A stretch of DNA of 64,000 nt from an uncultured Candidatus Rokubacteria bacterium (GTDB taxonomy: Bacteria; Methylomirabilota; Methylomirabilia; Rokubacteriales; CSP1-6), in the NCBI GenBank assembly GCA_963771355.1, contig CAVYTA010000006.1, positions 2,496,001-2,560,000 of the forward strand, read 5' to 3'. The translations under genes and the position numbers were made by a program. Of this stretch, positions 1-8,859 are shown one piece after another; position 1 is the first letter of the stretch, and every line of letters starts with the position of its first letter. Below the pieces are notes generated by a model. The model searched no databases. It had not been told where the DNA came from and saw only the letters and a program-made list of their open reading frames with translations.

Positions 1-198
1 AGCGAGGCTGAATGGGACGATGATGTACCAGCCGATGAACTCCATCGAGAGGTAGGCGGCACGCACCATCTGAGCACTGTGGCTGGTCAGACCGACGATG
101 GATAGAGCGAGGTAGGCAACGACCGCGCCGAGCCAGCCGACCGACAAAATGATATGCGCGGTGAGCGCGAACTTGCGAAGACTTGGTGTCATGGTCAT
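1..198 (-). CDS. DUF2269-like membrane protein, 5' part (runs off window); third integron cassette
   Basis: Hand translation MTMTPSLRKFALTAHIILSVGWLGAVVAYLALSIVGLTS...; hydrophobic; ATG lies 10 nt after the attC R' site; absent from the ORF track. Confidence 0.7.
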   Translation of the reverse strand, partial: MTMTPSLRKFALTAHIILSVGWLGAVVAYLALSIVGLTSHSAQMVRAAYLSMEFIGWYIIVPFSLA

Positions 199-208
199 GC
201 CTTATGCG

Positions 209-295
209 GGCTAACGCTGCCAGTGAGCGGCGCGGTCTCCGGCCGCTACATCGCCCCTCACCGTTCCCCGCGGCCGCTCGATTGGCTGGTTAGAG
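209..295 (-). mobile_element. attC: integron attC site (87 bp)
   Basis: Minus strand: R'' CTCTAAC, 5 nt, L'' AATCGAGC ... L' GCTCACT, 6 nt, R' GTTAGCC; L'' has one extra base relative to L'; lies just downstream of a stop codon. Confidence 0.88.
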
Positions 296-313
296 GTTGC
301 GATGACGGAGGCG

Positions 314-1303
314 CTACTCAATGACATGGTCTGCTAGGGCCAGCAACGAGGGTGGGATCGCGAGGCCGAGCGTCTTTGCGGCCCGAAGGTTGATGACCAG
401 CTCAAAGTGGATCGGTTGCTCCACGGGGAGTTCAGCGGGCTTGGCGCCCTTCAGGATCCTGTCAACGTAGCTGGCGGCCTGCCGAAACTGTTCCGTCAGC
501 TTCGGCCCGTATGACAGGAGTCCCCCCGCCTCAACATTCTCACTGCGCTGGAATATGGTTGCGAGTCGGGCCTGCCGGGCCAACTCCGCAATTTGCCGGC
601 GCTCACTTATGAACAGTGGATCGGGGAGGATCACGACGCCTGCCACGCCAGCACGGGCTATTGCTGCAAAGGCCGATCCCAATTCCTTCGGCTCTCTGAC
701 CGCGACATGCTGGAGCTGTATCCGCAATGACTCGGCGGCGACCTGGGTATCTCGCCACATGAGCGCAGACCCAGGATTCGTTGTGTTTCGCAAGACGGCG
801 AGCCGTGTCGCAGCGGGGCGGACCTCCTTGATTAGCTGCAGTAACTTGCCGCTGACATCTCGGGAGACATTGCTGACGCCGGTGACGTTCCCGGCAGGTC
901 GCGAGAGGCTAGCCACCAGCCCACTCCCGACCGGATCGCCGACAGAGACCATAACGATCGGAATGGTGCGAGTCGCGCGCTTGGCGGCAAGCGTCGCCGG
1001 CGTGGTCCACGCGACGAGAACGTCCACTTTCGAGCGGACGAGATCGGTAGCCAGGCGGTCCAATTCGGGTTCAGCGCCCGCGCTCGATCTCAGCTCCAAG
1101 ACGAGATTCTGTCCCACGGAGTATCCGAGCTCCCGTAACCGCCCTCGCAATGGCTCGACGTGCTGCGCGGCCGCTGTCGCCGGGACCGGGAGGAGTACAC
1201 CGACCCGGTACTCCTGCGCGGCTCGCGGCGCATCGGCCAGGAGCGACGCGGCGAGAATCCCGGCAAGGGCGACGACGATCGTGACGATGGGTCTAACCGT
1301 CAT
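314..1303 (-). CDS. ABC transporter substrate-binding protein (ABC_sub_bind family); second cassette
   Basis: Signal peptide MTVRPIVTIVVALAG; family motifs DPVGSGLVASLSRPAGNVTG, GGLLSYG, ILKGAKPAELPVEQP; start moved to 1303 because the longer ORF crosses an attC. Confidence 0.9.
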   Translation of the reverse strand: MTVRPIVTIVVALAGILAASLLADAPRAAQEYRVGVLLPVPATAAAQHVEPLRGRLRELGYSVGQNLVLELRSSAGAEPELDRLATDLVRSKVDVLVAWTTPATLAAKRATRTIPIVMVSVGDPVGSGLVASLSRPAGNVTGVSNVSRDVSGKLLQLIKEVRPAATRLAVLRNTTNPGSALMWRDTQVAAESLRIQLQHVAVREPKELGSAFAAIARAGVAGVVILPDPLFISERRQIAELARQARLATIFQRSENVEAGGLLSYGPKLTEQFRQAASYVDRILKGAKPAELPVEQPIHFELVINLRAAKTLGLAIPPSLLALADHVIE

Positions 1304-1348
1304 GACTCGCTTTGGTAGCACTCCAACCGGATGAGGCAATCCATGAAC

Positions 1349-1403
1349 CTCTAACGCACCATTCAGCGGCGGCGGAGCCGTCCGCTGCAATAGGCAGTTG
1401 TCC
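1349..1403 (-). mobile_element. attC: integron attC site (55 bp)
   Basis: Minus strand: GGACAAC-TGCCT-ATT(G)CAGC-GG(A)CGG...CCGCC-GCTGAAT-GGTGC-GTTAGAG; canonical R''/L''/L'/R' layout with two extrahelical bases. Confidence 0.92.
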
Positions 1404-1437
1404 GACCGCAGGCAACTGTACGCCCCCTCGTCCGTGA

Positions 1438-2412
1438 TCACTCGATCAGCCGATCAGCGCGCAGGAGCACCGCCGGCGGGAACGTGACGCCTTGAGCTTT
1501 TGCCGTCTTGAGATGAAGGACCAACTCGAAGTGCGTCGGCTGCTCAACGGGGAGCTCGGCTGGGTTTGCGCCTCTCAGGATCTTGTCGATGAAGGTGGCG
1601 CCGGAGCGGTACTGCTCGATCGTGCTGAAGGAGTACGACATCAGGCCGCCTGCGTCCGCAAATTCATTCTGCCCGTACACGGCAACCTGACGCTGGGCGT
1701 TCACCAATTCCACAATACGTCCGCGTTGGGAGACGAAGAACGCGGCTGAGAGGACATAGAGCACGTCTGGCCGCTCGGACTTCAGCACCTTGAAAGCGGC
1801 GATCAGATCCTCCGGTGATCGCGCCTCGATCATCCTCAGGTTCAGTGCGAGTGTCGCCGCCGCCTGCTTCAGAGTGGGAAGCATTCGTACTAGGGGCAGG
1901 TTCGTCGGGTCGTGCAGCAGCGCCACACGCGAGGCCGAGGGGAACACTTCTTTGAGGAGCTGCAATATCTTGATCTGAAACTCCTCCGCCTGATTGCTGA
2001 GCCCGGTCGCATTGGTCCCCGGCCGTCGCAACGCCTTGATGATCCCAATCCCTACCGGATCTGAGACGGCGACGAACACGATCGGGATCGTCGTCGTCGC
2101 CTTGGATGCCGCGAGGGTCGCTTGAGAGCCGGCCGCGAACAAGACATCGGGCCTGAGCGCGACCAGTTCCGCGGCCAGCGCGGACAACCGGTCGAACCGC
2201 CCCTCCGCGAACCGCCGCTCGACCACAAGGTTGTGTCCCTCGCGGTAGCCGAGCTCGGCGAGCGCCCTGAACAGGGCTCGTTGATTCGGCGCATTGACCG
2301 CCGGTGAAGCCGGGACTAGGTAGGCCAGCCGGTGGGGGCGCTGCTCTGCACTCGCCCATGCGGTCATTGCGAACGAGGCTGCGCCCGTCAGAATCTCCCT
2401 GCGCGTGGTCAT
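1438..2412 (-). CDS. ABC transporter substrate-binding protein (ABC_sub_bind family); first cassette
   Basis: MTTRREILTG Tat-like leader; DPVGIG..LRRPGTNATG, GGLMSYS, ILRGANPAELPVEQP. Confidence 0.9.
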   Translation of the reverse strand: MTTRREILTGAASFAMTAWASAEQRPHRLAYLVPASPAVNAPNQRALFRALAELGYREGHNLVVERRFAEGRFDRLSALAAELVALRPDVLFAAGSQATLAASKATTTIPIVFVAVSDPVGIGIIKALRRPGTNATGLSNQAEEFQIKILQLLKEVFPSASRVALLHDPTNLPLVRMLPTLKQAAATLALNLRMIEARSPEDLIAAFKVLKSERPDVLYVLSAAFFVSQRGRIVELVNAQRQVAVYGQNEFADAGGLMSYSFSTIEQYRSGATFIDKILRGANPAELPVEQPTHFELVLHLKTAKAQGVTFPPAVLLRADRLIE

Positions 2413-2442
2413 ACGACGAGACAAATCTTCATCGGTCGTGGT

Positions 2443-2466
2443 TCGGACAACTAGAATTATCTAGTT
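2443..2466 (-). mobile_element. putative attI site at the head of the cassette array
   Basis: Minus strand AACTAGATAATTCTA-GTTGTCCGA; the core is the exact complement of R'' of the 1349-1403 attC; AT-rich; no attC arms upstream. Confidence 0.6.
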
Positions 2467-2669
2467 CTGTGTAGCGCTGGGGACGGTGCGGGCGGGGCCC
2501 AGATCGCATGGAGGGGTGAGTTCCCTGCCGGTCGAGGATGGCTGCTCGGGCGCGCAGTTGAGAAGGTGCGGGCGCCGCGGGGCGCCGGGATAGGCAGACC
2601 GGTGTAGCGCGGTGTACGCCGCGGGCTCGGCGGCGGGCGGGAGGGCGGCGCACCGCGGCCGCCACGGGC

Positions 2670-3539
2670 TTAGATCATCTCCGCCTGGGCGCTCATGGCG
2701 ACTGTGCCCGCGGGCGTGACGGCCCAGAGCTCGCAGCCGCGGCCGTCGGCGGTGGGGCGGCCGCGCAGCTCGAAGGGGGCGCCGAGGAAGAGCGGCGCGC
2801 GCGCCTGGGTGGTGTAGGAGCGGAAGGGGCGGCCGGGGTTCGCGTCGCGGGCGAAGTCGATGAGGAGCGTAGAGGTCAGGGGGCCGTGGACCACCAGCTC
2901 CGGGTAACCCTCCACGTCCATCGCCCAGGCGCGGTCGTAGTGGATGCGATGGCTGTTGAACGTCAGCGCAGAGAACCGGAACAGGAGCACGGGGTCGGGC
3001 TCCACGCGGCGACGCCAGGGGACGTCGGTCGGCGCCTCCTCGCGGCGCGGTGCCTGGTTCCGGTCGCCGGCCTTGACCTCCTCGCGGAACACCGTGCGGC
3101 GCTCTTCCTCGATGGCGAGGCCCTCGGGCCCGAAGATGCGGTTGACCACGGTGGCGAAGACGAGGGGGCCGGTGCCGCCCTCCTTCATCGAGATGTCGCG
3201 GAGCTCGGACTCGCGCCGGAGCTGATCGCCCACGCGAAGGGGCCGCTGGAAGAGGAAGCGCTCGCCGGCGAACATGCGGCGCGGGAGCGGCATGGGCGGC
3301 ACCACGCCGGCGTCGCGGGGGCTGCCGTCCGGATGTAGCGCGTCGGGCCCGAAGCGCGGCAGGAAGTACAGGATGTGCCAGCCTGGCGGCAGCGCGTCGC
3401 CCGACGCGAGCTCGGGCCCGGACCGCCCGAAGGTCAGGCGCAGAAGGTTCGCCGGCGCGGCGGTGACGACGTCGCTGGAGACGACGCGCCGTCCGATATG
3501 GGCCTTCAGGCTATCGAGGTCGAGAGCGATCTTGGCCAT
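2670..3539 (-). CDS. MaoC/HTD2-like double hot-dog acyl-CoA hydratase/dehydratase
   Basis: LPRRMFAG, LFRFSALTFNSHRIHYD, LVVHGPL motifs. Confidence 0.85.
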   Translation of the reverse strand: MAKIALDLDSLKAHIGRRVVSSDVVTAAPANLLRLTFGRSGPELASGDALPPGWHILYFLPRFGPDALHPDGSPRDAGVVPPMPLPRRMFAGERFLFQRPLRVGDQLRRESELRDISMKEGGTGPLVFATVVNRIFGPEGLAIEEERRTVFREEVKAGDRNQAPRREEAPTDVPWRRRVEPDPVLLFRFSALTFNSHRIHYDRAWAMDVEGYPELVVHGPLTSTLLIDFARDANPGRPFRSYTTQARAPLFLGAPFELRGRPTADGRGCELWAVTPAGTVAMSAQAEMI

Positions 3540-3832
3540 GGGGCGACAGTAGCACGCCGCTCAGGAAAGGCAGGATTCGCGCCAAGCGGGGCCGGGGGCG
3601 CGCTCCGGCCAAGTGTGCGAGAAAGCATGAACTGTCTCAGCACATCTCCGAAGGTCAGGTGGCGTCCACTGCCCCGTCGGCGGGGCAGCAGCCCCCGCGA
3701 GGATGGGGCCGGCGGGGTGAACGTCCGGCGTGACGGGCATTTAGAGCCGATGCCCAGTGGGGGGTGCACAGCGGGGGGCAAAGTGCAGCCTTCGTCCGCT
3801 CCCCGGCCATCGCGATGTCGTATGCTCCCGCC

Positions 3833-4581
3833 ATGGCGCGACGGCCCCGGTTACGGTCCTGCTTGCTGCTGGGACTTGCCGTGACCTTCGCCGTTCCTGC
3901 CTGCGCCACGCTCGAGCGGGCCGGCGCGAATTACTGGGAGCTGTCGAGCGAAGCCTCGGGGCAGGCGCCAGATCCCGCCGCGACGCCGGAGCCGGTGATC
4001 CAGGTCTACGCGGCGCGCACCGTGGGCTGGCGCGGGCTGGTGGGCGTGCACACGTGGATCGTGCTCAAGCCGGCGGAGGCGCCCACCTATACGCGCTACG
4101 AGGTGATGGGCTGGGGCGTCGGATCGGGGCGGCCGGCGATCCGTGTGAACCGCATGGGGCCGGACAACCACTGGTTCGGGAGCCGTCCCGACCGCCTGGT
4201 AGACCGGCGCGGTCCCGAGGTCGGGGCGCTTTGATCGAGAAAGTCGACGCGGCCATCAAGGACTATCCGTATCCTGATCGCTATCGCTCCTGGCCCGGGC
4301 CCAACAGCAATACCTTCCTCGCGCACATCGGCCGCGCGGTGCCGGAGCTGCGGCTGGATCTGCCGTCCACCGCCATCGGCAAGGACTTCTTGCCCAATGG
4401 CGACCTCACCGCGCTGGCGCCGAGCGGTACCGGCGTGCAGGTCTCGCTGTTCGGGCTCGCGGGTCTCCTGGTGGGGGTGGAGGAGGGGCTCGAGGTGAAT
4501 CTCCTCGGGCTCTCCTTCGGCCTCGATCTGAACCGGCCCGCGCTGCGGCTTCCCGTCGCGGGGCGGCTCGGCTTCCCGTGA
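3833..4581 (+). pseudogene. DUF3750-like protein with frameshift near 4225-4234
   Basis: N-half (VIQVYAAR..VHTWIV..RYEVMGW) stops at 4234; C-half (YRSWPGPNSNTF, LPSTAIGKD) continues in another frame; may be an assembly error. Confidence 0.75.
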
Positions 4582-8622: not shown

Positions 8623-8859
8623 ATGGCAAAGAAGAAGACGGTCAAGCGCGCAGCGAAGAAGGTTTCGGCGAAGAAGGCCTCGGCGAAGAAGGTCTCGGCC
8701 AAGAAGGTCGCCGCCAAGAAGCCGGCGGCGAAGAAGGCCCCCGCCAAGGCCCAGGCGGCCAAGCCGGCCAGGATGGCGCCGGCCACCCCGGCCCCGACCC
8801 CGTATACGCCCCAGCCCATCTCGGGCATCGGCTGGGCCCCCTTCCGCTACCCCTCGTAG
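8623..8859 (+). CDS. histone H1-like Lys/Ala-rich protein
   Basis: AKK pentapeptide repeats plus Pro/aromatic tail; codon usage fits neighbours. Confidence 0.8.
   Translation: MAKKKTVKRAAKKVSAKKASAKKVSAKKVAAKKPAAKKAPAKAQAAKPARMAPATPAPTPYTPQPISGIGWAPFRYPS
8653..8742 (+). repeat. six imperfect 15-bp coding tandem repeats (AKKxx)
   Basis: gcgaagaaggtttcg / gcgaagaaggcctcg / gcgaagaaggtctcg ... Confidence 0.85.

Follow-up and report, generated by a model that had tools for sequence, protein, structure and literature searches.

Two consecutive genes near the start of the window (the whole 64,000-nucleotide stretch analysed, part of contig C6 in a 5.5 Mb genome that is 99.8% complete) encode divergent PF04392 binding proteins, and the anatomy of their attC sites confirms both as true integron gene cassettes, with putative excision and insertion by IntI. 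The same family is the commonest cargo in the arrays examined from this lineage. Cassette cargo usually consists of resistance, toxin-antitoxin, defence, detoxification or unknown genes. The explanation that we favour, with a confidence that falls a little short of even, is that the cassettes head a chromosomal array without an integrase and that the proteins of this orphan family would serve as exchangeable periplasmic ligand detectors on a shared dCache kinase.

Both cassettes lie on the minus strand, which is the top strand of their attC sites. The gene of cassette 1 (1438..2412) encodes a PF04392 protein of 324 aa assigned by Pfam, with an attC at 1349..1403 (minus strand) that scores 51 bits under a covariance model partly built from this site. 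The gene of cassette 2 (314..1303), assigned by Pfam and a structure model, encodes a PF04392 protein of 329 aa, and its attC (209..295, minus strand) was delimited from the box anatomy read from the sequence; the start of a third cassette gene, for a product of 197 aa without Pfam match, occupies 1..198 of the minus strand, and the array goes on past the window. The two binding proteins match PF04392 with E-values of 1e-42 and 7e-47 (160 and 147 bits against a gathering threshold of 25.9) and are 40% identical to each other. Judged by eye, the leader of protein 1 begins with T-R-R-x-I-L and is twin-arginine-like, and that of protein 2 is a plain hydrophobic leader of Sec type. The initial annotation had described two consecutive cassettes carrying divergent members of one family, one with a Sec-type and one with a Tat-like leader, and both descriptions hold. 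It had overlooked the attI at 2449-2476, the leftward extension of the array with its third PF04392 gene, and the lack of an integrase.

Each attC carries R''-L''-L'-R' boxes with a 5-nt spacer after R'' and an extra-helical base in L'', and its R'' is the reverse complement of the first nucleotides of its own cassette (9 nt in cassette 1 and 10 nt in cassette 2). A match of at least 9 nt between R'' and the 5′ end was found in 24 of 52 adjacent pairs, against 1% of 5322 mismatched pairs. The folding energy is not significant for the site at 209–295 (z −0.3) and is modest for that at 1349–1403 (z about −2), so the evidence for the attC sites lies in the box anatomy and the end match. The attC alignment also shows covariation, though it was fitted to the model and leans toward it; an Rfam search returned no attC family match, and a generic repeat finder missed the sites. 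A sister of cassette 1 was found in another genus (G071; 86% body identity, dN/dS 0.195), and a sister of cassette 2 with a similar attC in the complete integron of L111 (73–74%, dN/dS 0.17); these sisters are alike in 5′ start and attC and stand among different neighbours. The L111 record is labelled Nitrospirales, its genome has a RecA 69% identical to that of the present genome (85–91% within the family), and its IntI is 93% identical to the IntI of a Rokubacteriales genome; misbinning and recent transfer both fit, and transfer of cassettes across phyla is not claimed. The same complete integron holds an NMT1/THI5-like binding protein with a twin-arginine-like leader as a further attC cassette (L111:6572-7615).

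The head of the array is formed by an attI-like site of 28 nt (2449..2476, minus strand; crossover G|TT at 2451/2450), recognised from where it lies and how well it is conserved, and by a conserved leader of about 190 nt upstream of it (2477..2650, minus strand), delimited from alignments. The 28-nt site has four matches in the genome, each preceding an attC array, and none in the reversed control; the leader is common to four arrays of the genome, with 68–70% identity (blastn) between the window copy and the three other loci. In G002, a genome of the same genus, the shared leader directly follows the 3′ end of a frameshifted, co-oriented intI and the same attI-like site is present, which identifies the 28-nt site as attI. 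The four units of attI and leader lie at window 2449-2650, C4:240799, C6:1214300 and C8:125033, each heading a separate array, and G002 has at least three attI-led arrays, one of which alone adjoins intI. The leader and attI unit has apparently spread by copying to further loci, as satellite integron platforms.

A core gene for a FAS1-like dehydratase (2670..3539, minus strand) flanks the array and serves to identify the orthologous locus in G002 and G003, where the cassettes differ from those found here. The GC content of the first 2.5 kb of the window is 0.63–0.64, against 0.73 in this core gene. A search of window 1-2800, leader included, for promoters of the sigma-70 consensus type found none. 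Soil and rhizosphere DNA runs from five studies, one of which may be the source of the assembly itself, contain at least half of the words of the cassette stretch, and contigs from four runs cover both cassette genes with few differences; an assembly artefact is thereby ruled out. Only 5–11% of the words were found in the six runs catalogued as RNA. Two contigs of one soil run (X3) break at window 213, inside the R' box of the cassette 2 attC, and run into unrelated sequence beyond it, possibly as a result of an element inserted in the attC or of a rearranged array in that strain. Elsewhere in the window, a DUF3750 gene (3764-4581) is seemingly split in two frames near 4230, by a frameshift or a sequencing error, and a short Lys/Ala-rich, histone-H1-like ORF with 15-nt tandem repeats lies at 8623-8859.

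To the left of the window the array continues for about 9 kb with at least six more attC sites, and its cargo there includes GNAT, AHSA1, SMI1, DUF1801 and LysE genes and a third PF04392 gene that is without its own attC. The whole array, with at least eight attC sites and no intI, is a CALIN as defined for IntegronFinder (PMC4889954); it retains attI, derives from a co-oriented integron and belongs to a known class. No intI was detected in this genome by tblastn or with the TIGR02249 profile, which stayed below its cut-off genome-wide, and the only trace is a 16-residue C-terminal intI remnant at the C4 array. Since intI has been lost from the genome, cassette shuffling here would need an incoming integrase. 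Among the 41 relatives searched, only nine have an intI over the cut-off, and in G002, G010, G016, G020, G035 and L111 it lies 5′ of attI and is co-oriented with the cassettes; an IntI of this orientation would have moved the cassettes.

Own attC sites were assigned to 5 of 34 full-length PF04392 copies in this genome, using a profile made from its own copies and a two-arm attC scorer that gave one score >25 on the reversed genome. The corresponding counts are 4/21 in G002 (one copy called by the covariance model), 2/31 in G006 and 1/17 in G007, with regions fetched for most, not all, copies of these three genomes and frameshifted copies excluded, so that 12 of 103 copies (about 12%) are cassettes in the four same-genus genomes pooled. 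A pattern joining the last codons of the family to the left arm of attC matched 26 of 251 genomes of the phylum and none in the reversed control; 30 of the 36 matches came with loci, and 23 of 31 occurrences inspected, in 21 genomes, consist of a PF04392 tail and a full attC. A scan of metagenomes with such a pattern, run without a control scan, gave 68 loci, of which 43 were confirmed and 30 are distinct. On this count, at least 21 other genomes of the phylum carry binding-protein cassettes. The initial annotation had named a near lack of other attC-associated members as the sign of a one-off capture, and the counts speak against such a capture.

In arrays found through intI or attI, PF04392 genes make up 11 of 72 cassettes (6 of 52 leaving out this genome), and as the largest cassette family they account for 10 of 70, the next family having three. 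They occur at 1.85 per 10 kb within arrays and at 0.18 per 10 kb in low-GC DNA elsewhere (p 9e-5), a test that counts the two discovery copies. One 6.8 kb contig (C251 of G141; L258/L119) carries seven cassettes in a row, five of which hold a PF04392 gene with an attC of its own. Decayed forms were also seen: in a second C6 array (L008:9027-9464), a truncated PF04392 gene of about 145 codons stands right after an attC as a decayed cassette, and a lone attC (C5:1000227-1000280; score 32) precedes a PF04392 3′ fragment by about 300 nt, where several decayed copies of the family are clustered in one region.

Integrons hold about 12% of the family and are therefore a side channel of its expansion, not the main cause. 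The initial annotation had suggested that integron shuffling could help explain the expansion; given the small share of cassettes, and the finding that none of 89 non-cassette copies carries the cassette 5′ frame or an attC arm, integrons do not explain most of it. These copies likewise oppose the idea, which we hold to be very improbable, that the family radiated inside cassettes and that chromosomal and tandem copies are escaped cassettes. That idea would fit the interleaving of cassette and non-cassette copies on a 145-protein tree (FastTree) and the 19 of 54 cassette copies that match a non-cassette copy at ≥60%, in some cases with unlike signal peptides; however, attC is absent from 20 of the 22 closest relatives of protein 2 in GTDB, and expanded-type copies, counted irrespective of attC linkage, are also multi-copy on rhizobial plasmids. 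A tree of cassette and non-cassette copies, as proposed at the outset, shows the cassette copies scattered: on a 104-protein tree (quick IQ-TREE), 13 cassette copies need 13 changes, at least six of them forced by strong branches. No direction of transfer is claimed, because both trees are unrooted.

A shared frame was observed around these scattered copies. One attC subtype occurs at 43 of the 63 sites linked to the family and at 3 of 43 scan-motif-matched others, most of the family-linked sites in this count having come from pattern scans, and in arrays not chosen by pattern it occurs at 5 of 20 family-linked sites against 1 of 73 others; cassettes bearing it also have a common 5′ start, and the two window cassettes do not carry it. 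Identity of at least 80% in spacer and attC was found in 203 of 1378 cassette pairs, and in 172 of these 203 the bodies are <55% identical with four-fold sites saturated. Sister pairs made up of a cassette and a tandem copy, at 75–83%, differ in signal peptide. The simplest reading is that coding bodies would move into an existing frame via recombination in conserved ends, and would in this way be exchanged between cassettes and the chromosomal or tandem copies; alternatively, the shared frame may reflect an old attC under strong constraint. The route by which new cassettes arise is called unknown in PMC4889954, and the common frame around unrelated bodies offers a concrete handle on how they form. 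A broader proposal, which we regard as rather unlikely, is that rokubacterial integrons are a shuffleable receptor library in which the frame is reloaded from the paralog pool and each cassette plugs a ligand specificity into a shared dCache kinase; if true, reloading would be a visible, testable route for making cassettes, and the integron would diversify sensing rather than resistance or defence.

A recombination signature specific to cassettes was sought in the 3′ tail and rejected. Four-fold-site identity over the last 20 codons is 0.51 in cassette, 0.54 in non-cassette and 0.63 in tandem copies; the rise is no evidence for such a signature, because it occurs in all classes and the scan pattern fixes part of it. 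A raised synonymous identity in the tails of all classes speaks for a view that we consider unlikely, namely that the genes are mere passengers of a very abundant family that recombines at its conserved ends and so often reaches integrons, without special adaptive meaning. About 88% of copies lie outside cassettes, many in attC-less tandems with 5′ and 3′ remnants, and the loss of intI from this genome agrees with it as well. The ten-fold higher density in arrays than in other low-GC DNA argues against it, as do purifying selection on cassette orthologs across genera (dN/dS 0.16–0.29 in 8 of 8 pairs) and the first place behind attI that PF04392 genes hold in two of four arrays here and two of three attI-led arrays in G002. 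The attC-less tandems, with overlapping stop and start codons, were located at C7:711919-717479, C7:777150-779140, C8:131-2124 and C6:981238-989133; these regions also hold isolated 5′ or 3′ PF04392 remnants, and the tandems often stand behind the 3′ end of a histidine kinase or a common short upstream ORF.

The AlphaFold2 model of protein 2 (pLDDT 96) superposes on 3LKV, 3LFT and 6HNI with TM 0.92–0.94 (0.94 for 3LKV and 3LFT), which are aromatic amino-acid binders (PMC6816091). The window proteins score 146 and 107 bits against the TrpX equivalog NF041285, whose cut-off is 390, and the canonical aromatic-binder motifs are replaced in them by hypervariable loops. With cleft positions assigned through alignment to these motifs, cleft-loop identity among paralogs is 16–18% against 43–53% elsewhere, and it reaches 86% among close orthologs. 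Loops that diverge in paralogs and are kept in orthologs suggest that PF04392 lineages may bind different, selected ligands, and each lineage would then recognize a different small molecule. The initial annotation had proposed that integrons supply swappable binding specificities; the scattered cassette copies, purifying selection and variable cleft loops favour this part of the proposal, and the missing intI of this genome counts against it.

The same proposal left open whether a transporter or a sensor is shared. The idea that the cassette proteins deliver ligands to a promiscuous importer, of ABC or other type, whose genes lie at another locus is improbable in our view, although the nearest solved relatives belong to ABC importers (PMC6816091). 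No importer permease or ATPase was found among the five ORFs scanned up to window 6085, in agreement with the initial observation that none lies nearby. Around 25 of the 28 non-array copies, the 46 neighbours examined include three histidine kinases and no importer permease. A canonical permease used as a single query had no matches in this genome or in G004, and in three others its E-values were 1e-4 to 2e-7. Beyond the end of the array, 9–15 kb to the left of the window, lie two fused ABC proteins (ABC_membrane+ABC_tran and SbmA-like). Such fused and SbmA-like types work without binding proteins. Together with the low TrpX scores and the canonical pocket motifs that are not kept, these results oppose a shared transporter, and the window proteins are, as judged from sequence comparison, PF04392 members rather than TrpX importers. 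The suggested search for a cognate partner thus came back empty for the permease, with one query, and yielded a candidate among kinases.

This candidate is a dCache-HAMP-GAF kinase, whose gene forms an operon with one conserved PF04392 copy. The kinase family is present in 46 of 61 genomes of the order. A PF04392 gene lies directly upstream in 14 of 14 loci of one receptor clade, the partner being a separate conserved PF04392 subclade and not the cassette copies, and in 3 of 16 loci of the other clade. This genome has one kinase of each receptor clade, the two dCache domains being encoded at C6:1253142-1255655 and from C6:310196 onward; the second, orphan dCache kinase has no binding-protein gene in the surrounding 14 kb and is followed by a receiver-adenylate cyclase. 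On a Rhizobium plasmid, an expanded-type PF04392 copy is coupled to a dCache-HAMP-adenylate cyclase. Complex prediction for protein 2 with the orphan dCache domain of this genome gave weak support, with 0.60 against 0.29 for the best control; 18 of 157 solved complexes passed with a score of 0.60 or less, and so did both passing mismatches (2/215). Three docking runs gave 0.59–0.61 with at least 80% of contacts agreeing, and the partner had a pLDDT of 89. By the tool's own counts such a pass would be wrong oftener than right unless the pairing was likely beforehand, and it may echo solved complexes of binding proteins with dCache domains. Activation of dCache receptors by binding proteins is established for other families (PMC8050422). 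The conserved dCache kinase is thus tentatively the best partner candidate: the cassette proteins would dock on the dCache-HAMP-GAF kinase, behind which receiver and receiver-adenylate cyclase genes lie. For the proposal of a shared transporter or sensor, this means that the sensor part gains a candidate and the transporter part does not.

That the exported proteins act on their own, with no dedicated partner, by binding up small molecules that are toxic or scarce in the periplasm, strikes us as distinctly unlikely. The neighbouring cassettes do carry detoxification cargo (GNAT, SnoaL, AHSA1, RibD_C, HAD and nitronate monooxygenase), and detoxification and secreted proteins are enriched in cassette cargo (PMC10661359); nevertheless, members of the family are paired with dCache receptors in a conserved operon, and the docking pass, weak as it is, points the same way.

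A search of the open literature yielded no paper on PF04392 cassettes or on integrons of Rokubacteria or Methylomirabilota. The words 'ABC' and 'substrate-binding' occur zero times in the main text of PMC10661359 and one of its supplements gave no match, though its figure lists of Pfams and secreted functions may include the family. As far as the open literature shows, one orphan binding-protein family as the leading cassette cargo is new, and so are a cassette frame linked to a family and several attI-led satellite arrays per genome. Within the arrays examined from this uncultured soil lineage, a single paralogous family of ligand-binding proteins leads the cargo, and a named candidate partner now exists for the function of this family, which has dozens of orphan copies per genome. 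Should the proteins serve one and the same kinase, shuffling by integrons would rearrange what the cell can sense; if they are passengers, the cassette content and the attI-led satellite arrays are still a new record.

Among known systems, Bug/TctC proteins are expansions of orphan binding proteins with dozens of paralogs per genome. The PF04392 family resembles them in the number of orphan paralogs, but a subset of it is packaged with real attC sites behind attI. TrpX, CD0873, VC_1101 and SP1069 (PF04392; 6HNI, 3LKV, 3LFT; PMC6816091) share the Pfam family and the fold (TM 0.92–0.94), whereas the window proteins are 24–31% identical to them, score below the TrpX cut-off, have replaced pocket motifs and lack an adjacent permease or ATPase. 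LuxP-LuxQ, HptA-HptS and ChvE-VirA (PMC8050422, a review whose main text holds no mention of PF04392 or ABC_sub_bind) place a periplasmic binding protein on the dCache domain of a kinase, as is proposed here; in contrast to them, one or two receptors would serve a large set of mobile paralogs, with binding weakly predicted. Treponema-type integrons (PMC3607928) likewise have an intI transcribed toward attI and co-oriented with the cassettes, and in them too the array may persist at a syntenic site after loss of intI; the present ones belong to a different phylum and have several attI-led satellite loci per genome. Sedentary chromosomal integrons and CALINs (PMC4889954) are similar in their attC-bounded single-gene cassettes, their attI crossover G|TT and their clusters without neighbouring intI, with an intI remnant at one locus here. 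In contrast to these systems, four arrays of this genome each keep attI and a common leader, one protein family makes up about 12–15% of the cassettes, and one attC subtype tracks the gene family across hosts.
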